IMG/VR virus record: IMGVR_UViG_3300033074_001354
Span: 32,001-96,000 of that record
Source of the DNA: a virus
Lineage: Duplodnaviria > Caudoviricetes
Strand: one strand, 5' to 3'
DNA length: 64,000 nt
Shown: positions 1,660 through 63,932 of the stretch, one piece after another
Layout of the letters: every line of letters begins with the position of its first letter
Position numbering within the stretch: the first letter of the stretch is position 1
Made by a program: the position numbers and the translations under genes
The notes under the pieces: model-generated
What the model was told of the DNA's origin: nothing
What the model saw: only the letters and a program-made list of their open reading frames with translations
The model's database searches: none

Positions 1660-1991
1660 TTTTCAAACTCCAACAGTTTAATATCATACATAATCCATCC
1701 TAAATCACCAGTTGTAATACATTTGTTATTAACAGTAGTCCATGTTAACTTGCTCTTATAATGTGCCTCACAATGCAATTTTGCAGATTTTAATGATTTA
1801 AAATTTTTTATCCAAATTATTGTAGTATACTCAGTGCCCATAGAACCACCAAGATGTGTTAAATCTGTTGCGATTGCAGTATAACTATTCATATCTGCAC
1901 CTAATAGTATTTTCTGACTTCGTTGCATCCACCGGCACAAACTTCCTCTCGGCGTAGAGTTCGACGCGGTATTGTTTATCGTAATGATCAT
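1656..1991 (-). CDS. Hypothetical protein (start may be the internal MNSY)
   Basis: ORF coupled to the downstream gene. Confidence 0.45.
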   Translation of the reverse strand: MIITINNTASNSTPRGSLCRWMQRSQKILLGADMNSYTAIATDLTHLGGSMGTEYTTIIWIKNFKSLKSAKLHCEAHYKSKLTWTTVNNKCITTGDLGWIMYDIKLLEFEK

Positions 1992-2108
1992 GTATACCAG
2001 GTTGGGCGGGTATTAGATTGTGTGCCATTATTAAAAAGTAATAACCACTCCTAAAAAAACGCCAGCTAAAAACTCGTAGATTGACATATATCCTCCTAAT
2101 TGTTAGTT

Positions 2109-2184
2109 GTTCCGGGCTCGGATTCAATCGCGCTCTTGCGCTACGCCCTCCGCGTCCGATAGTTTTAGTCAGGACACCCGGAAC
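2109..2184 (-). ncRNA. 76-nt structured RNA, array element 1
   Basis: 8-bp closing stem GTTCCGGG/CCCGGAAC; internal hairpins GTCC..GGAC and GCGC-AAGA-GCGC. Confidence 0.5.
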
Positions 2185-2192
2185 TGAATTAA

Positions 2193-2335
2193 TGTGCGAA
2201 GGCCGGGCGCTACTCCGGCTTCCTTCGGCTACGGACATTTCGGGTGTTAGTCCATAATTTTAGCCCCTACAAAAACCCCCGAGGCCTTAAGTATTTGCCC
2301 TGTTGCGTGACTGCTAATCCACGCCACTCCGCACA
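2193..2335 (-). ncRNA. tRNA-like RNA with long central insert, array element 2
   Basis: Closing stem TGTGCGGAG/CTTCGCACA, D-arm-like TGGCGTGGA...ACGC, T-arm-like GCCGG-AGTAGCGC-CCGGC. Confidence 0.55.
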
Positions 2336-2342
2336 AACTTAA

Positions 2343-2520
2343 GCAAGTGTTCCGGCAGGCCATTTCAACCTGCATTGGATACTTCCATAGCGTTTCTACG
2401 TAACCTACTATGGACGCTCGAAGTCTTTAACCTACCAGCTCGGATTATTTCTTATCCATTTGCTTTATCTTCGTCAAGATACTCGCATTAGCGTCTCTCT
2501 TCCGCCACGGAAACACTTGC
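2343..2520 (-). ncRNA. tRNA-like RNA with long central insert, array element 3
   Basis: Closing stem GCAAGTGTT(T)CC/GGAACACTTGC, Leu/Ser-type D arm GTGGCGGAAGAGAGACGC, T-arm-like GCAGG-TTGAAATGG-CCTGC. Confidence 0.6.
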
Positions 2521-2537
2521 AAACTATCTCAAAGAAC

Positions 2538-2610
2538 TGGTGGCGGTGTTCTTACCCGCATCCCACACAGGCCGTTTCTTAAGTCGTGCCTGCTACGCTC
2601 TCCACCGCCA
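2538..2610 (-). ncRNA. 73-nt CCA-ended structured RNA, array element 4
   Basis: 8-bp stem TGGCGGTG/CACCGCCA followed by CCA; contains TTAAGAAACG, shared with element 5. Confidence 0.5.
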
Positions 2611-2639
2611 AAGCAACGTAGTATTAAGAATGCAGTAAC

Positions 2640-2726
2640 TGGCAGCCGGGCATGACCACGGTAAGCGTTACGTCTTCCGGTCTGATGCTTAACGCCTGCA
2701 CCCACGTTTCTTAAACGCTCCCGGCC
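2640..2726 (-). ncRNA. 87-nt CCA-ended structured RNA, array element 5
   Basis: 7-bp stem GGCCGGG/CCCGGCT followed by GCCA; contains TTAAGAAACG. Confidence 0.5.
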
Positions 2727-2734
2727 TTGAATTT

Positions 2735-2992
2735 TTATTCGACAACTTCAATAATGACGTCCCCTCCAACTCGAACCAACTTTCCAGTTGCTTTATCCAT
2801 AAATTGCCATCCGTCTGACTGAGACATGGACTCTACTTTTCCGCTAGAAATCCACTCGCGAACCAATACTCCACCGTTATACATGGTAACTTTATGTTCT
2901 TTTCCAAATGATAAAAAGCTGGCTTTTCTTGCATCTGTGCAACCTGAAACAATAACTGCAAAAATAAGCGCTGCCAAAATCTTGATTCTCAT
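2735..2992 (-). CDS. Small lipoprotein
   Basis: Basic N-terminus, hydrophobic stretch, lipobox VSGC. Confidence 0.75.
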   Translation of the reverse strand: MRIKILAALIFAVIVSGCTDARKASFLSFGKEHKVTMYNGGVLVREWISSGKVESMSQSDGWQFMDKATGKLVRVGGDVIIEVVE

Positions 2993-3164
2993 CCCTCATT
3001 CTCCTTCTGGTTGTGTTGTGGCGTTGTTAAAAATTCTATTTAAAATAGTTCGTGTTCTGCAGTCTCTGCTTTTGATAGGGTTAACGATGTGATCAAAGAC
3101 ATCTGTTAGCATGTATAATAAAATTCCGCAATCTTTACAAATCCAAAAATCAGAACTCACCGCT

Positions 3165-14856: not shown

Positions 14857-15753
14857 TTAGAAGTTTCCATCTGCAACTTGAAGACACACTAATCCTAAAT
14901 CTCTCCACAATCTAACAACCTGATCCCTGTCATCCAGCACAAAATCAACATAATACTTGTCGCGAACATGCTCATTAAACATATTCAACTTGACAGCACT
15001 GTCCTTTACCCTATCAGACTCTTCCTTCACCGTGCGCATTTTAAACAGGTCTGGGTGTATATCATATTTAGCCAGCCAGTCTAAAGTCTCATAATAAAAT
15101 CTTTCTGATCTGCCAGAAAATATGACGAGATTTGCATCAGCTGGAGAACACGAAGACAAGTAGGATTTAACAATTTTCGCTACCGGAGTGTTAAGCTTAT
15201 CTTTAGAAAAGTCTCTGTCATATGGATTATCACCAAACAGAGCAAGTGTCCCATCCAAATCAACAATGATTGCATGTGGCAAACTGGGATCCTGTTGTAT
15301 TGGCGTACGTTTTGGCTCTATGTACCTCGCATAGAAATTTTTGATGACCGTTTCCCCAACTCCATTAGCCCTCTTATTATCACGTTCAATGCAAGTATTC
15401 AAAGGAACATGCAAAAAATCCTTAAAAGAAATTTCTACCTCAATGTTTGCTTGGTCAGCAATGCTAAGCACAAATGACATCAGATCATTAACATGTTGAG
15501 GGTTTAAATTAGTATCTGAAATTATAACGTTCTTTCCATACAACAATGCCTCTTTTAAGCACTGCTTGTGCATAGCAGTAATGAGATCCTCATCCTTAGG
15601 ATACCAATACTGGCCACGCATATGCCTAATATCATCTCTATTTATCCTGACCCAATCCTTGTTCTTTTCACAAAAGGCTTTGGCCCAATAATCCTTGCCT
15701 GAGCCAGGAATACCTCTAGTAAATATTACTTTTAACACTATTTGATTAGGCAT
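14857..15753 (-). CDS. pseT: Polynucleotide 5'-kinase/3'-phosphatase (T4 PseT-like)
   Basis: P-loop GIPGSGK, NRDDIR, HAD DLDGTLA, DDRDQVV..WR..G..CLQV..GNF; start placed at MPNQ. Confidence 0.9.
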   Translation of the reverse strand: MPNQIVLKVIFTRGIPGSGKDYWAKAFCEKNKDWVRINRDDIRHMRGQYWYPKDEDLITAMHKQCLKEALLYGKNVIISDTNLNPQHVNDLMSFVLSIADQANIEVEISFKDFLHVPLNTCIERDNKRANGVGETVIKNFYARYIEPKRTPIQQDPSLPHAIIVDLDGTLALFGDNPYDRDFSKDKLNTPVAKIVKSYLSSCSPADANLVIFSGRSERFYYETLDWLAKYDIHPDLFKMRTVKEESDRVKDSAVKLNMFNEHVRDKYYVDFVLDDRDQVVRLWRDLGLVCLQVADGNF

Positions 15754-16855
15754 CTGCATCCACACTAAACGGTTTATAGAATTTTGGTTCAACCATATCC
15801 CACAATCTATCCTCAATAGACAACATGTTCAACACTAATGAAGAAACTCTTTCTCTTGCAGGATCAGCGCTCAAAAATTCACAACGAGATTTGCGATCAG
15901 GCAGTCCCAAGCACTGAAGATAGTATTTATTAGCTTCTTCCCTCAAAAATTGTCTTTGAGATTCCAATTTAGACTTAGTGCTGACAACGAACTGATAAAA
16001 CTCATCAGGAACATTTGTAATGATATCATCAATTGACTGGTTAGATTTCAAAGCCTCCCATATAGACCTATTGCTAACGCCAGTAACAATCTTATGGAGC
16101 CTAGTATACTCTGCATACTTTAGCTTTACACGCAGTCCAGTATCAAATCTTATGACAAAACCCTCGCCACCTTTGTACCTTACCTTATCACGAATATTGT
16201 TAAAATCAAACCCACTATACTGAGCAACTATAGGAAACTCATACTTGTCATGCATCATCTCAATATAATTTCTGCTGAGCTCCACGCCATTGTTGTTGGC
16301 ATAGGCAGCTAGTAACCACAGATCAGAAGCGCCTTTATAATCTACGACAATGCGATTCTCAGGGTATATGATCTCAACAAGAACTGTGACGCCATTGTAT
16401 GGATGCTCATTTAGAAGAGCATAATCTTCACAAAATGCAGGATACATATCATGCAGCATTGCTGTAGCTCTAAGTGCTTGTTCAGAGTTGAAACTGCCAC
16501 GAGTAGCTACGTAAGTCTTTCCTTGCCAACAATAAAGAATACCAAGGCTGCCATCAACCTTCTCGTATACATCAAATGACTTGTATGGAGGCAAAATTCC
16601 AAGTTGACTGTCTTCTCCATATTCCTCTATATTGTGAAACTTGGGAAATGGCCTAGCAACGATATCACCTTCAGAATTAACAATTAGTCCTCTCGCGTAT
16701 CGTAGTTCAGGATATTCATTCCAAGCTTGCGAGAACATCGCTAACGAAGTGTAGTTATACAGCCAAAGATCAAATTCTGGATGCTTGACTTCATCGAGCA
16801 ACTTCTTATACTTTAAAATGGCTCTATTGGGCAGCAAGCTTACAGGTTTTGGCAT
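15746..16855 (-). CDS. RNA ligase 1 (T4 Rnl1/RnlA-like)
   Basis: ARGLI, RPFPKFHN, EKVDGSL, ATRGSF, EII, EGFV, RVKLK motifs. Confidence 0.9.
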   Translation of the reverse strand: MPKPVSLLPNRAILKYKKLLDEVKHPEFDLWLYNYTSLAMFSQAWNEYPELRYARGLIVNSEGDIVARPFPKFHNIEEYGEDSQLGILPPYKSFDVYEKVDGSLGILYCWQGKTYVATRGSFNSEQALRATAMLHDMYPAFCEDYALLNEHPYNGVTVLVEIIYPENRIVVDYKGASDLWLLAAYANNNGVELSRNYIEMMHDKYEFPIVAQYSGFDFNNIRDKVRYKGGEGFVIRFDTGLRVKLKYAEYTRLHKIVTGVSNRSIWEALKSNQSIDDIITNVPDEFYQFVVSTKSKLESQRQFLREEANKYYLQCLGLPDRKSRCEFLSADPARERVSSLVLNMLSIEDRLWDMVEPKFYKPFSVDADA

Positions 16856-17616: not shown

Positions 17617-17915
17617 AACTTGATTAACTCATACTCCCAATTGCATGGACCAGGATGATCTTCATCAGAGTCTATAACAGCTTGAGCACGACAAGTTCTA
17701 CAGTATCTATGCAACTTGTAGTTCAAAGGAACTTTTTGATGATCATTCATACTGCCATACACAGAAGTATGAAGACAAGTCGGACAAATATGCATTTTCT
17801 TGCACTTGTCATTCTCATCTGGTATGTCAAACAAGAGAGCCCATTTTCCATCTCGCTCTTTGTGGCACCAGTGGCATATCGCCTTCGTTCCTTTAGACAT
17901 GCTTCTCCAATTCAT
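17613..17915 (-). CDS. Small Cys-rich protein
   Basis: CHWC, CPTC, CRTC. Confidence 0.5.
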   Translation of the reverse strand: MNWRSMSKGTKAICHWCHKERDGKWALLFDIPDENDKCKKMHICPTCLHTSVYGSMNDHQKVPLNYKLHRYCRTCRAQAVIDSDEDHPGPCNWEYELIKL

Positions 17916-17986
17916 TCCCCATGGAGGACTCGAACCTCCGCTCCTAGATCCAAAATCTAGTGGCTTACCAACTTGTCGAATGGGGA
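17915..17986 (-). tRNA. tRNA-Gln(TTG)
   Basis: Acceptor TCCCCAT/ATGGGGA, anticodon arm CTAGA-TTTTGGA-TCTAG, T arm GGAGG-TTCGAGT-CCTCC. Confidence 0.85.
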
Positions 17987-17993
17987 ATGTTAA

Positions 17994-18770: not shown

Positions 18771-18824
18771 ATTATCCTGCCTTTAATTTGTACTTTCTAT
18801 ATTTACAGGTTATTCTCACTAGTA

Positions 18825-18899
18825 TGGGCATGGCAGGATTTGAACCTGCGATCTCCGGGTTATGAGCCCATCGCTTTAACCAGGCTAAGCTACATGCCC
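18825..18899 (-). tRNA. tRNA with CAT anticodon (Met/fMet-like)
   Basis: Acceptor GGGCATG/CATGCCC, anticodon arm GGG-CTCATAA-CCC, T arm GCAGG-TTCAAAT-CCTGC. Confidence 0.85.
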
Positions 18900-18907
18900 A
18901 GGGCAAT

Positions 18908-19035: not shown

Positions 19036-19650
19036 TCAATATCTTGTGGGGGGCTTGTCATCCAGTATATCACGATTCCTGATCAAATCATCTCTCATCC
19101 TAGCAACTATTTCATCAAACAAAATCTGGGCACCTTTCCTGGTCATTCCTAATTCTTTGGCTATATCATTGATTTTGTCACCCTGGAGGAACAACTCAAT
19201 CATCTTCTTTTCGTTGCTTTTCAGCTGTGCTTTTTCAATAAAATACTGTATATCAAGCATACGTATGCTGTTAGCAAAAGAAGAGTCATGACATTGTTTT
19301 GCATCAAACCTGTCACTGACATCTGACTCTATGGCTTCATATTTTGTGTATTTGTAATGTGCCTTTAATTCTGCAATAGCATATGCTTTAACCCTAAACA
19401 ATATGTGAAGAGCGTCATCAAAAGCTCTAGCCGTAAGAAGAGCCTTATTAACTCCAAGAATGCAAGTCTGGTACATATCATTTGCATCAACCGCCTCATA
19501 CTCTGGACGACGTGTCTTAAATTTATTAATAACAGAAATTAAAATGGGATCTACAGCTGGAATAATTTCTTCTAACAACTTTGGATTATTGGTAGTTTGA
19601 TACTCTATGACCAATGACTTTATTTTATCTGCTGATAGATGAAATGACAT
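19036..19650 (-). CDS. Sigma70-family-like RNA polymerase sigma factor
   Basis: Region-2-like D..DMYQTCILGV..A; C-terminal region-4 HTH LKSNEKKMIEL...INDIAKELGMT. Confidence 0.7.
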   Translation of the reverse strand: MSFHLSADKIKSLVIEYQTTNNPKLLEEIIPAVDPILISVINKFKTRRPEYEAVDANDMYQTCILGVNKALLTARAFDDALHILFRVKAYAIAELKAHYKYTKYEAIESDVSDRFDAKQCHDSSFANSIRMLDIQYFIEKAQLKSNEKKMIELFLQGDKINDIAKELGMTRKGAQILFDEIVARMRDDLIRNRDILDDKPPTRY

Positions 19651-22600
19651 TATTGATTAGCCCTACGAATTATGCTGCTAAGATCTATACTGGACGTGTC
19701 ACCAATGATTTTCTTTCCTGTTCCATCTGTTGGAGACAGTAAGTCAAATGGATTCTTTGGTTGCTCCTGTCTCACTATAACATTCTTCATCACTTGCAAA
19801 ATAGTGCCAACATCTATTTGATTATCAGGCTCAGACAGACAGCACTCCACTGATCCACCAACGGCATCGCAATTATGTACGAATATACCAGCATCTAGCG
19901 CAAAATTTGAATATTTCTGAACTGTAAGATCAAACACCTCACAAGATGGCAACCTCTCAGTCTTAACCACCTTATGATTGTAATTTTTGTCTTCAGAAGG
20001 CTTTTTGCTCCTATTCTTTAATCTCTCAGTATGCCTTTTTCTAAACTCTGGGTCCTGCCATAGCTTCCTAATACTAGTTCTGCCATTCAACTTGTGCTTT
20101 TCCAGTAGTTCCTTTTTGAGTTCTATACTGGGCTCGGCAGCAAATTGCCCTAAACTATTTCTTTTTGTTATCTGTGACCTGTGAGTACCTTCCTTAATCT
20201 TTCTTCTGTTCTGCTCACGCAGTCTAACAGAATGCCTCGAAATAAATCCTGAATCATCCCATAAAGAAGACATTACTTTATGACCTAGTCTAGCATAGTG
20301 CCCATTTTCCTTTAGTTTCTGTATTTTCTTCTTAGACTTGTTGTATTGGGTGATGTTGTTTTTGCCAGTACGTTTACCAAGATTAGCGCTGCGCTCTTTA
20401 TGCCGTTTTCTGAACTCTGGATCTTTCCACATCCTATCCATATTGCTCTCGCCAAAACTATTGTGCAATAGTAAATGATCATCCCAGCCCATAATCTTTA
20501 AATTACATGATGCGTTGTTTAATTTATTAAAGTCAATATGATGTATCACTTTTCTAGTCTTCTTCTTTCCAGTATGTGTAAACCCTAATACTTCTCTAGC
20601 GACTAACGCATGAGTGTATTCATACTTATCAGTAGCATTTTGCTTTATAACGTGATATCCATTCATATTAAACCCAGAATCTTTACTAGAAACAGAAGTA
20701 TACAATGGCATCAAACTATCACCTGAAGAAAGATATTTAGCTTCTCTATATGATCCATCTCTAAGCATGAATCTATGATCCAAAGTACAATCAACAAATT
20801 TGCCATTGTCTAAATGTACTCTAACAATATCTTCTCTAATGCCATTGCTATGCACATTAGAAGCTTGCCCCACAGATATTGTTCCATCAGGCAAACAACT
20901 AAACACTTCAAACTCTTGACCAACAAGATCCTTTATAGCGACAGATTTTCCAGATAGCAAAATAATCTTTGTATCACCAGAAATACAAACGTCTTTTGAG
21001 CCAGCCATAGACACCTCTCTAGTGCCACCATCTTCAGTAAATTCTATCTCTAGCATTTTGACAGGGTGATCAACCTTTCCATCGCGGTGCTCTAAATACT
21101 TTGCTTCAATGTATAGAATCTGATGATGAAAACATTTCCATCTTTTTTCGTACACAAGATTACACCAGCTTATATATCCTTGATCAGTGCGATCCATTGA
21201 ACGATACTCTGTATCAATACCCTCTGCGCCTAATATCTGAAACGTGTCCTCTGATGCTAACTTCAAATCTGCAGAAAACTTGCGTATATTAAATCCCAGA
21301 TGTTTTAAATCAATAATAAACTTGCGCATCTTATAGATAGGAATAGCATCACCAGGCCTTGCTTTCAACCTAAGTATCCATTCAGTAGCAACAATTGGGA
21401 CTCTTTTCATCCCAGTTGTCTTATCTGGTAATATAACGTTACGTTCTTCCCAATCGGATACCAAAGAACATGCAAGAACCATAGCATCACCAGTAACACC
21501 AAAATCCATATGAATATATCTGGGCTTAGTCCTCTCAAACTTAACAGCACCCTGATCAAAAAACCACATAAGATCAATATCATCTTTAAGACCAATCTCT
21601 ATCGTATCCCTTTTGAAAAGATTTATCATCTCAGATGTCATACATTCTTTCACGAATATATCTGACTTAAACAACTTATTTCGGCGAGTGCCAGCAACGG
21701 AACGGCCAGCAATATCACGGCAAGCGTGAACTATATCCTGCTTAAAGTCTTCTTCATACTCTACAGGAACTTCTATTACCTCATACCCGTCTTTTTGCAA
21801 TTGTAGTATATTATCACCAGGCATCAAGATCATAGGATCACGAAACGCATCACCAGGTATGCCGACTTTAAACTTTTCTCCAGAGAAAAAGAATTTTGGC
21901 TTAGCATCCCACACTGGGATATCAAAAACCAAAGCAGTGCCTGAATTTTGTTTTTCAGCAACAAAAGTATTGATAAATGAAAGTTCATCTTGCTTAGAAG
22001 CCACAATTATCATTCGACCAAGACTCTTACCTTTAAGAACAACACGAGATTGGAATCGGCGATAAGTACTATCATACGCCTGAAGTACACGCAATTTCTG
22101 CTTAATAGAAACAGTAGGCGTATCAACTTCATCTAAAACTCCAGATAACACGTCGAGTCCTTGCGTTCCGAAGCCCTGTGACATAGGCGAAGATAGGACA
22201 AATTCTATTTCTGGCAATTGCACAGTCTGCTCCTTGCCATCAATAATACGCACCGCTATTTGCCTGAACCATGGAGATTTAAAAAGAAAAGATTGAAGAG
22301 TAAGATACCCTTTTGAACTGCCAAGATTTTTAGTGAGATTAAAGAAGGAAACCGATAAACGACCTGCAGAAAGTAGATTTAAATACTGCCTGGGATTTTT
22401 AAGGCACAAAATCCTATATATTACATAGCATAAAATGATGACAGCTATAGAAGACTTTCCTATTCCAATAGCTCCTGTTAGCACAACAAATATGTTGCTG
22501 TCATCATCAAATATCTTTACTAGCGCTCGTTTCCAAACATCATAGATACCTCTGCCATTTTCAGTCGACTTTCCTAAGTAATAATCATTAGTAATGAACT

Positions 22601-22703
22601 CAAGTATGTCGACAGGTTGCTCATTATAGTCGATTGCATATAATGCATCGCTATACGTTTTAAGATTGATTGGGCTGTTCTGTGCTCGACTCTTTTTGCT
22701 CAT
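19650..22703 (-). CDS. terL: Terminase large subunit (intein-containing)
   Basis: Walker A LTGAIGIGKS, Walker B VLDEVD, RNase H-like YIHMDFG, KVDHP, and SKDV/CDA split by the intein. Confidence 0.85.
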   Translation of the reverse strand: MSKKSRAQNSPINLKTYSDALYAIDYNEQPVDILEFITNDYYLGKSTENGRGIYDVWKRALVKIFDDDSNIFVVLTGAIGIGKSSIAVIILCYVIYRILCLKNPRQYLNLLSAGRLSVSFFNLTKNLGSSKGYLTLQSFLFKSPWFRQIAVRIIDGKEQTVQLPEIEFVLSSPMSQGFGTQGLDVLSGVLDEVDTPTVSIKQKLRVLQAYDSTYRRFQSRVVLKGKSLGRMIIVASKQDELSFINTFVAEKQNSGTALVFDIPVWDAKPKFFFSGEKFKVGIPGDAFRDPMILMPGDNILQLQKDGYEVIEVPVEYEEDFKQDIVHACRDIAGRSVAGTRRNKLFKSDIFVKECMTSEMINLFKRDTIEIGLKDDIDLMWFFDQGAVKFERTKPRYIHMDFGVTGDAMVLACSLVSDWEERNVILPDKTTGMKRVPIVATEWILRLKARPGDAIPIYKMRKFIIDLKHLGFNIRKFSADLKLASEDTFQILGAEGIDTEYRSMDRTDQGYISWCNLVYEKRWKCFHHQILYIEAKYLEHRDGKVDHPVKMLEIEFTEDGGTREVSMAGSKDVCISGDTKIILLSGKSVAIKDLVGQEFEVFSCLPDGTISVGQASNVHSNGIREDIVRVHLDNGKFVDCTLDHRFMLRDGSYREAKYLSSGDSLMPLYTSVSSKDSGFNMNGYHVIKQNATDKYEYTHALVAREVLGFTHTGKKKTRKVIHHIDFNKLNNASCNLKIMGWDDHLLLHNSFGESNMDRMWKDPEFRKRHKERSANLGKRTGKNNITQYNKSKKKIQKLKENGHYARLGHKVMSSLWDDSGFISRHSVRLREQNRRKIKEGTHRSQITKRNSLGQFAAEPSIELKKELLEKHKLNGRTSIRKLWQDPEFRKRHTERLKNRSKKPSEDKNYNHKVVKTERLPSCEVFDLTVQKYSNFALDAGIFVHNCDAVGGSVECCLSEPDNQIDVGTILQVMKNVIVRQEQPKNPFDLLSPTDGTGKKIIGDTSSIDLSSIIRRANQ
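19872..20987 (-). mobile_element. Intein (372 aa) with HNH homing endonuclease
   Basis: Starts CISGDT, block B CTLDHRF, HNH IHHIDFNKLNN...NL, repeated W-x-DPEFRKRH motifs, ends FVHN followed by extein Cys. Confidence 0.92.
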
Positions 22704-63384: not shown

Positions 63385-63520
63385 TGTTGGAACTAGAGGC
63401 TGATCTACCTACTGATCTATCCCCGCTAATACTTGAAGTATTCAACCTCAAGATCCCCAACCGAAGTCAGGTGGTGCAGGGAGTGGGACTTGAACCCACG
63501 ACACACCTTTCGTTCCAACA
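63385..63520 (-). ncRNA. Circularly permuted tRNA-like RNA (YrlA/Y-RNA-like architecture)
   Basis: T arm plus acceptor 3' strand plus ACCA come first (63472-63520); acceptor 5' strand plus D arm come later (63385-63426); ends pair TGTTGGAAC/GTTCCAACA. Confidence 0.75.
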
Positions 63521-63524
63521 CTAC

Positions 63525-63548
63525 ATAGAAACCTGAAGTTCTATTACA
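63525..63548 (-). promoter_or_regulatory. Putative phage promoter TGTA-N12-GTTTCTAT
   Basis: One mismatch to consensus; ends 4 nt before the permuted RNA. Confidence 0.6.
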
Positions 63549-63561
63549 TCAAGAGTATATA

Positions 63562-63596
63562 GTATACAAGCCTCCTACGCGAGGAGGCTTGTATAC
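63562..63596. terminator. Perfect 15-bp inverted repeat, probable terminator or insulator
   Basis: GTATACAAGCCTCCT-ACGCG-AGGAGGCTTGTATAC downstream of the lipoprotein gene; no clear U tract. Confidence 0.55.
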
Positions 63597-63653
63597 ACTA
63601 CCAGAAGACAATAATTAGCTCTGATGTATTCTGGGGTAGCTGGGAACTGCTAT

Positions 63654-63932
63654 CTATGCATCTTCAGCTCTAGGGGATGAACCACCACATTGTGATTCTA
63701 TACGTCTCCATGCGCTTAAAGTGACTAACTGCATGTTACTTTGTGCGACATAGTCCGCTTTGCCTCCCTCTATTGGCAAAGGCACATCCTTGATGACTGT
63801 CCCTTTAGGGATCAAAACATAATCGTGTACGCCACCAACTACCACGACATCTGTCTTTTTATTGAATAGGGCACAGCCACTATTTACCAGAACCGTGCTT
63901 ATCAGCACGAGCATCCAAAAAGTCTTTCTCAT
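63654..63932 (-). CDS. Lipoprotein, possible o-spanin
   Basis: MRKTFWMLVLISTVLVNSGC lipobox; overlaps the end of an upstream coiled-coil ORF. Confidence 0.55.
   Translation of the reverse strand: MRKTFWMLVLISTVLVNSGCALFNKKTDVVVVGGVHDYVLIPKGTVIKDVPLPIEGGKADYVAQSNMQLVTLSAWRRIESQCGGSSPRAEDA

Follow-up and report, generated by a model that had tools for sequence, protein, structure and literature searches.

What is encoded in a GC-rich, non-coding gap at positions 2110-2726 of a 64,000-nucleotide (nt) stretch of phage DNA? This stretch, which we call the window, comprises bases 32001-96000 of a 134,685-base-pair (bp) IMG/VR virus record (IMGVR_UViG_3300033074_001354) that is estimated to be ~73% complete. 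Five units, each closed by a stem and read on the minus strand, tile the gap; they are designated A to E and together form array B. Unit C is a demonstrable member of a family of RNAs built on a leucine transfer RNA (tRNA) chassis, units D and E share its end signature in a diverged form, and only an acceptor stem with CCA and a single arm remain in units A and B. This anatomy is established, as are the paralogy of the units with a second array in the same genome (array A), the place of unit C and of the array A unit A4 in the leucine-chassis family, and the absence of a decoding arm from all five units, none of which can decode. Our preferred reading is that array B probably consists of tRNA-derived, non-decoding RNAs that are excised and stabilized by the tRNA-processing enzymes of the host.

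The gap has a GC content of 0.50-0.54, compared with a genome mean of 0.40, and its units are separated by AT-rich spacers of 6-30 nt. All surrounding open reading frames (ORFs) lie on the minus strand, as do the four real tRNA genes of the phage, and the G·U pairs, CCA ends, and T loops of the array make sense on that strand only. An initial annotation of the gap had described five stem-closed units, their lengths, and their AT-rich spacers, all of which are present in the sequence. Its units 4 and 5 (our B and A) were said to end in an encoded CCA and to share TTAAGAAACG, and both features are there; since the quoted motif is the minus-strand sequence, the initial annotation had also read that strand.

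As it had also noted, no unit forms a canonical cloverleaf. We took as canonical any RNA that reaches the gathering score of RF00005 (29 bits) or that is called by ARAGORN at default settings. ARAGORN called zero of the five units, and Rfam searches of the units returned nothing at the gathering score, nothing at E ≤ 10, and nothing at E ≤ 10 with RF00005 alone. Calls on the units under relaxed ARAGORN settings need "introns" of 6-128 nt. The folds contain no anticodon arm in which a 5-bp stem carries a 7-nt loop; C and D have inserts made of several hairpins, and the loop of B spans 10-15 nt. The part of the tRNA frame that is kept throughout is an acceptor-like closing stem, present in all five units; where a tRNA would have its anticodon and variable region, there are unrelated folded inserts or, in A and B, an oversized loop.

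Several other RNA classes were considered and set aside. For transfer-messenger RNA (tmRNA), there was no default ARAGORN or Rfam match and no tag reading frame, and a relaxed "tmRNAp*" call over 670 nt is not credible. No Rfam match to GOLLD or ROOL was found at E ≤ 10 in positions 1800-3000. YrlA and Y RNAs were likewise unmatched in Rfam, and the 134.7-kb record (~73% complete) contains no match to Ro (TROVE), RtcB, or a CCA-adding enzyme. A tRNA with a group I intron was rejected as the identity of the units on the basis of ARAGORN and Rfam.

The leucine-tRNA chassis is most fully preserved in unit C (2520..2343, minus strand, 178 nt, with the tRNA body at 2348-2515), which has a 12-bp closing stem with one bulge. 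Its acceptor stem begins with U1-A72 and is lengthened by five leader-trailer pairs, and the unit carries G(-1), C73, and U8 G9. The D arm, GCGGAAGAGAGACGC, opens with UGGCGGAA and ends with AGACGC; compared directly, the D arm reads UGGCGGAAGAGAGACGC in unit C and UGGCGGAAUUGGCAGACGC in real tRNA-Leu genes of related phages. A variant T arm, GCAGG-UUGAAAUGG-CCUGC, with a 9-nt loop, abuts the acceptor stem. Between the two arms, ~110 nt folded into four cargo hairpins stand in place of the anticodon and variable region, seven helices of the unit meet at a predicted junction, and the minimum free energy (MFE) of the unit has a z-score of -5.2. The initial annotation had described this unit (its unit 3) together with its unit 2, giving both a Leu/Ser-type D arm, a T-arm-like hairpin, and roughly 80-110 nt of replacement; for unit C, the description is upheld by the model search reported below.

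With class II tRNA-Leu, units C and A4 have in common U8 G9, the D arm GCGGAA..AGACGC, the T stem GCAGG/CCUGC, and the 7-bp acceptor stem. They differ from it in lacking the anticodon arm and the long variable arm and in having C73 and G(-1) instead of A73, and RF00005 finds nothing even at E ≤ 10. Unit C also lacks the canonical elbow, that is, GG in the D loop and UUCGAAU in the T loop: its D loop is GAAGAGAGA, without GG, whereas A4 has both elements.

We searched the genome with R1, a covariance model made from 11 elements of other phages only. Unit C scores 23.3 bits on the minus strand in a match that spans model positions 1-106 (E = 1e-3 when 84 kb are searched and 1e-5 when 1 kb is searched). 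The top score in the genome belongs to A4, also on the minus strand, at 37.7 bits (E = 2e-7), and the phage's own tRNAs reach at most 29.7 bits. Membership of the family was judged by a significant match along the whole of R1, from acceptor stem through Leu-type D arm to T arm, with a long insert separating the two arms; in array B, such a match was obtained for unit C only.

Array A lies on the minus strand at genome positions 16836-16376 (L004:877-1337), 15 kb before the start of the window and 17 kb from array B, and contains four units, all on that strand. Unit A1 is closed by GGCCGGG...CCCGGCC followed by AUCA, and A3 by GAGAGAG...CUCUCUC followed by ACCA. The 99-nt unit A2 has the canonical T arm AGGUG-UUCGAUU-CGCCU and ends in ACCA, and the 150-nt unit A4 has the canonical T arm GCAGG-UUCGAAU-CCUGC abutting the acceptor stem, with 5 extra leader-trailer pairs. 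NCCA ends are found in two units of array B and two of array A, with GU following all four, and U stands at position -1 in unit B and in two units of array A.

The two arrays resemble each other in their frames and differ in what the frames enclose. Units C and A4 both have U8 G9 followed by GCG(G/U) and a D arm ending in ACGC, and their common frame has GCAAGUGUUU(C)CGUGGCG on its 5' side and CCUGCCGGAACACUUG on its 3' side. The inserts in between can hardly be aligned; the overall alignment of the two units has a z-score of 8.3. Unit A and A1, the first unit of array A, agree in 17 nt at the 5' edge (UUCAAGGCCGGGAGCGU). Between the arrays, the identical frame ends extend over 16-18 nt and the inserts cannot be aligned. 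Because identical frames flank unrelated inserts, duplication with neutral drift does not fit, and either constraint on the frame or exchange of the inserts is indicated. The inserts of C and A4 do have one cargo motif in common, UAGGYUACGURGMAACG. When 2.7 Mb of retrieved loci and the rest of the genome were searched, no meaningful match turned up for this motif or for YUUAAGAAACG, which is described below for units A and B.

This pattern bears on whether the units are decaying tRNA genes, functionless remnants of a former cluster that were broken by insertions. Such an origin would agree with the lack of a canonical cloverleaf, with the lack of recognizable D or T loops in D, E, A, and B, and with the lack of covariation data. 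The GC content, however, stays 10-14 points above the genome mean, and every closing stem is intact. The frames are also letter-identical in arrays 17 kb apart despite their differing inserts, and the design of chassis plus insert is intact in other phages, one of them cultured. We regard decay as very unlikely.

Those other phages include a relative whose portal protein is 44% identical in the best tblastn segment and which carries an element of 107 nt; its D arm is the same, and so is its T arm, after which CGG follows. A scan of IMG/VR with a 20-mer of this element gave >120 loci, of which 75 are ordinary tRNAs and 45 are uncalled by ARAGORN. Among these 45 are the members of the family from which R1 was built, and they have the layout GGUAUCG-UG-GCGGAAUUGGUAGACGC-(insert of 52-102 nt)-GCAGG-UUCGAAU-CCUGC-CGGUACC-A, with mutually unrelated inserts. 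The leucine-chassis RNAs of these uncultured phages and of the cultured phage BS-TP2 resemble those described here in combining a constant tRNA-Leu frame with an unrelated 52-102-nt insert that replaces the anticodon region and in allowing several units per locus. They differ in having G1-C72, A73, canonical D and T loops, and an unextended acceptor stem. In one tRNA-Leu-derived element (L264, 145 nt), the anticodon stem and variable arm are those of the tRNA-Leu(UAG) encoded at its own locus, and only the loop is replaced.

Individual members and neighbors of the family were also located. The 107-nt element (L143:885-991 and L144:28-95; both ends of IMG/VR record G004) sits inside the direct terminal repeat of a 124-kb portal-related phage; RF00005 gives it 34 bits, and ARAGORN does not call it. 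In Bacteroides phage BS-TP2 (PQ571275.1, 19550-19657; L268:2501-2608), the leucine-chassis RNA lies in an unannotated gap between gp31 (DUF2303) and gp32 (NinG/Rap). Several long units occur together in at least two further IMG/VR loci (L240:3983-5697 and L179:10880-12695), where three or four tRNA-shaped units (102-113 nt) on different chassis lie within 2 kb, with 0 ARAGORN calls and small ORFs in between; such loci represent the same type of array in unrelated phages. Separately, two IMG/VR loci (L192 and L241) contain 279-nt elements that end in GCAGGTTCGAATCCTGCCGGGCCC-ACCA, in which a tRNA gene is split by ~200 nt after the anticodon stem. This interruption is probably a group I intron in a phage tRNA.

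Units D and E resemble unit C chiefly at their ends. Units C, D, and E, as well as A4, have in common G(-1), a U1-A72 acceptor stem, C73, and U8-G9; in C, D, and E, the 7-bp stem and C73 are not followed by an encoded CCA, and CCA is not encoded in the real tRNA genes of this phage either. Unit D (2336..2193, minus strand, 144 nt) has a C-like layout in diverged sequence, with G(-1), the stem UGCGGAG/CUUCGCA (U1-A72), U8 G9, and C73. A D-arm-like GCGUG-N10-CACGC is followed by ~85 nt of cargo and by a T-arm-like GCCGG-AGUAGCGC-CCGGC that abuts the acceptor stem. The initial annotation had seen a Leu/Ser-type D arm and a T-arm-like hairpin in this unit (its unit 2); the sequence has diverged, and R1 gives it 4.4 bits on the minus strand, which is not significant. 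Unit E (2183..2110, minus strand, 74 nt) combines G(-1), the 7-bp stem UUCCGGG/CCCGGAA, U8 G9, and C73 with two inner hairpins that form a three-way junction. It has no flush T arm, and no model matches it.

Units A and B are built differently, from a 7-bp stem, a discriminator base, and an encoded CCA, with the motif UUAAGAAACG in common. Unit A (2726..2640, minus strand, 87 nt) is closed by GGCCGGG/CCCGGCU (7 bp, with G1·U72), followed by the discriminator G, CCA, and then GU, so that its 3' end reads G73-CCA. Its inner hairpin (minus strand, within 2640..2726) carries UUUAAGAAACG, and there is no D arm or T arm. Unit B (2609..2538, minus strand, 72 nt) has the stem GGCGGUG/CACCGCC, U at position -1, and A73-CCA followed by GU. 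It also lacks a D arm and a T arm and consists of a single long arm (minus strand, within 2538..2609) whose 10-15-nt loop, holding CUUAAGAAACG, resembles the anticodon loop of tRNA-Leu(UAA); its MFE z-score is -2.0. R1 matches only the acceptor stem of unit B (4.7 bits, minus strand) and, with filters off, finds no match in units A and E. The combination of a 7-bp closing stem with NCCA was seen 2 times, compared with 0.16 expected.

The likeness of A and B to class II tRNA-Leu lies in their NCCA ends and in a UAA-type loop heptamer. Both contain YUUAAGAAACG, which includes the tRNA-Leu(UAA) loop heptamer CUUAAGA, as judged by comparison with real phage tRNA-Leu(UAA) genes, and their hairpins present YUUAAGA in a 10-15-nt loop or on a very short stem. 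A "Leu(taa)" call on unit B is made only by relaxed ARAGORN and requires a 6-nt insertion.

These features raise the question of whether A, B, and perhaps other units act as decoys that soak up a host nuclease or toxin attacking tRNA (such as an enzyme that cleaves within the anticodon loop of tRNA-Leu(UAA) or alters the CCA end) and so protect translation. The motif with the heptamer and the NCCA ends of both units fit such a role, and the phage encodes an Rnl2-type RNA ligase, as expected of a phage that faces tRNA damage. The loops, however, span 10-15 nt or are closed by 2-4 bp, in contrast to a 7-nt loop on a 5-bp stem, and an anticodon loop is missing altogether from C, D, and E. The shared 10-mer occurs only three times in the genome, and no partner for it was found. 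We consider a decoy role of this kind quite unlikely. The initial annotation had suggested possible decoys for anticodon nucleases or other RNA-sensing defenses; C, D, and E, having no anticodon loop, cannot mimic the target of an anticodon nuclease. Its overall reading is partly supported and holds as far as tRNA-derived RNAs without a cloverleaf are concerned.

We next consider the array as a whole. The minus strand of the 651-nt region folds with a predicted energy of -218.9 kcal/mol (z = -3.9 relative to shuffles), and the plus strand of the same region with -188.9 kcal/mol (z = -2.5). Tiling by 7-bp stems is weakly unusual taken alone, as equal coverage was reached in 16/300 dinucleotide shuffles. 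The strong overall fold could reflect one large multi-domain RNA of ~620 nt in the manner of GOLLD or ROOL, and when the region is folded as a whole, AAGGCCGGG at the 5' end of unit A does pair with CCCGGCCUU in unit D, enclosing ~520 nt. This long-range helix has no counterpart in array A, though, and each unit is self-closing. The NCCA-GU sequence after two units here and two in array A marks separate tRNA-type 3' ends, and Rfam offers no match to GOLLD, ROOL, or another large RNA, even at E ≤ 10. A single large RNA appears highly improbable.

Translation of the gap finds no support. The part of ORF 1885-2238 that extends into the array (2086-2238) has a coding score of -0.16, and two minus-strand ORFs within the gap score 0.09 and -0.08, compared with a mean of 0.44 and a 5th percentile of 0.195 for coding windows. 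Coding in the gap is unlikely, since all of these scores fall below that percentile. The initial annotation had named translation of this very ORF as a finding that would count against its reading, and the region appears to be untranslated.

The array is flanked by two small ORFs on the same strand. Upstream, the stop codon of an 85-amino acid (aa) ORF (2735..2992, minus strand; coding score 0.27) lies 8 nt ahead of unit A. Downstream, a 66-aa ORF (1885..2085, minus strand) starts with ATG at 2085, 24 nt past unit E, behind a strong ribosome-binding site (AGGAGGA, 2090-2097). Promoter and terminator scans from the upstream stop to the downstream start found neither, and for this reason the array is probably co-transcribed with the 85-aa ORF. 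The 85-aa protein matched two distant loci, neither with an array.

We infer from the sequence how such an array might be expressed and what it might do. It would be transcribed within a polycistronic message that runs from the 85-aa gene toward the portal gene, which lies 2.2 kb downstream. The frames would be recognized by the tRNA maturation machinery of the host, with RNase P acting on the 5' side and exonucleases, or RNase Z plus the CCA-adding enzyme, on the 3' side, and the units would be released as stable small RNAs. The tRNA frame would then serve as a chassis for processing and stability and the insert as the working part, which most likely would bind or titrate a tRNA-binding factor of the host or the phage. 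The conservation of the frame and the variability of the insert across this locus, its paralogous array, and the chassis elements of other phages are as expected if the frame serves processing and the insert does the work.

The same position between co-oriented genes could also point to a role in cis. In this alternative, the units would act mainly as cleavage signals for RNase P and RNase Z that split the upstream message from the downstream one and set their stabilities, and the excised RNAs would have no role of their own. Both arrays lie between co-oriented ORFs, array B is 2.2 kb upstream of the portal gene, and the promoter and terminator scans were negative. Precedents exist in the tRNA punctuation of mitochondria and in the t-elements of plant mitochondria, the latter documented (PMC1920247). 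One unit would suffice for this purpose, however, and there are five here and four in array A. A cleavage signal also needs neither large stable inserts, such as that of unit C (z = -5.2), nor a constant frame with swapped inserts. We find message punctuation unlikely as the main role of the units.

A more far-reaching version of the preferred reading, in which the units are excised tRNA-derived RNAs, is that phages use tRNA frames as a modular display, with a constant chassis and swappable RNA cargo. The array would then be an effector cassette, for example, of decoys or aptamers directed against host defense or translation factors. Through their free NCCA end and UAA-type loop, units A and B could imitate uncharged tRNA-Leu, and the identical frames and unrelated inserts of the two arrays would be the outcome of recombination within the frame that swaps the cargo. 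We put this proposal forward tentatively and consider it possible but doubtful. If it is true that the inserts are anti-defense or regulatory RNAs, they would represent a new class of phage effector and a natural counterpart of the engineered "tRNA scaffold" of Ponchon and Dardel. In that scaffold, a cargo RNA reportedly replaces the anticodon loop or arm, and the tRNA enzymes of the cell are said to process and protect the product. The units described here have the same design, with the differences that the scaffold is artificial and that processing of the natural units is predicted from their sequence.

Several observations weigh against the reading of the array as processed tRNA-derived RNAs. 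Units A, B, D, and E are recognized by neither R1 nor Rfam, and their tRNA likeness is a layout read by eye. The fold z-scores of units A, D, and E are weak (-0.6 to -1.7), and a generic descriptor of acceptor, D, and T arms without T-loop sequence is uninformative, with 49 matches in the real DNA and 47 in shuffled DNA. The 5' leader of C, like that of A4, is paired to the 3' trailer, an arrangement that is unfavorable for bacterial RNase P. No RNA runs are among the sequencing runs listed as holding the stretch. Compensatory changes were seen in 8/15 frame pairs of the foreign family, a figure that is inflated because its members were picked with a descriptor requiring pairing. The searches described next found no homologue of any array B unit outside this genome, which leaves the inserts, as well as units A, B, D, and E, without support from covariation.

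For these searches, array B, A4, and the first 12 kb of the window were compared by blastn with 50,697 GenBank phages, with no match. Exact searches of IMG/VR with 16- and 17-mers of the frames gave chance matches only, none with the partner strand, and PolA and the portal protein as single queries found no relative in IMG/VR. Among 70 loci found with a portal profile, the 10 kb around the portal held no comparable GC-rich array, only ordinary tRNAs and one lone 111-nt class-II-like element. RNAs of the chassis-plus-insert type are not in Rfam 15, and full-text literature searches found no description of them; one paper contains the general remark that phages hold tRNA-like candidate structures (PMC10690425). 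Annotation misses such RNAs: neither tRNA finders nor Rfam report them, and in BS-TP2 the gap that contains the element is unannotated. Two DNA runs from one study hold the stretch, with contigs identical to the reference; they accordingly show no variants and may be the source sample.

The closest described analogues are rnaC and rnaD of phage T4, through which phage tRNA-like stable RNAs have been known since the 1970s. The initial annotation had pointed to the tRNA-like stable RNAs of T4, and the parallel is apt: rnaC ("species 1", 139 nt) and rnaD ("species 2", 119 nt) are annotated as small stable RNAs in NC_000866. Like the units described here, they are phage-encoded, co-oriented with phage genes, non-decoding, and longer than a tRNA. 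In T4, rnaC has a T arm beside an acceptor-like end, and rnaD ends in ...ACCA. With R1, the 3' 92 nt of rnaC score 25 bits, similar to unit C and above most T4 tRNAs. To our knowledge, no function has been found for either RNA.

The differences from T4 are equally clear. T4 rnaC and rnaD adjoin eight real tRNA genes, whereas array B does not lie within a phage tRNA gene cluster, with the nearest tRNA gene 15 kb off at window position 17914. There is no sequence similarity between the T4 RNAs and array B, and T4 has two units compared with five here plus four in the second array. The Leu-type D arm and the pairing of leader with trailer are further points in which the units described here differ from rnaC and rnaD. 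Non-decoding RNAs with a tRNA-like module are also known in the YrlA-type Y RNAs and in the tRNA-like domain of tmRNA; in the units of array B, by contrast, the module is not permuted, and there is no tag reading frame. Phage tRNA-like stable RNAs are therefore an old kind. What is new here is their occurrence in a divergent T4-like lineage, in two paralogous arrays, at a distance from tRNA genes, with encoded-CCA units and with the G(-1):C73 / U1-A72 signature.

The phage itself is a lone, divergent T4-like myovirus of bacteria, judging from the type of its portal protein and the low identities of its portal and PolA. The portal is of the T4 gp20 type (PF07230), with a top match of ≤43% identity among 5.8 billion proteins, and a UDG-PolA fusion is ~32% identical to SPO1-like Bacillus phages. 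The possibility of an archaeal host in which tRNA introns are spliced was set aside, since a DnaB-type helicase and a family A polymerase are encoded in the record and its ribosome-binding sites read AGGAGG. The four real tRNA genes (Gln, Met, Pro, and Asn) are scattered on the minus strand and score 55-71 bits with RF00005. A 369-aa protein (window 15746-16855, minus strand) matches PF09414 (Rnl2-type RNA ligase; 29.9 bits), and its gene lies ~1 kb from tRNA-Gln (17914-17987) and tRNA-Met (18824-18900), which suggests a capacity for RNA or tRNA repair. A 1017-aa ORF (window 19650-22703, minus strand) contains an intein splicing domain (PF14890, residues 581-944), and inteins are also present in several portal homologues of other phages.

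Elsewhere in the window, we observed a permuted tRNA-like RNA on the minus strand at 63385-63520 (also 63475-63578 and 63637-63841). It begins with the T arm GUGGG-UUCAAGU-CCCAC and the 3' acceptor strand with ACCA, followed by a linker and then by the 5' acceptor strand GCGGGGA (G3·U70) and the D arm, and its ends pair at the place of the anticodon stem. RF00005 matches the T arm only (13 bits), and R1 gives 10 bits. No Ro gene was found in the record, and the layout of this RNA is like that of a two-piece tmRNA or of YrlA.

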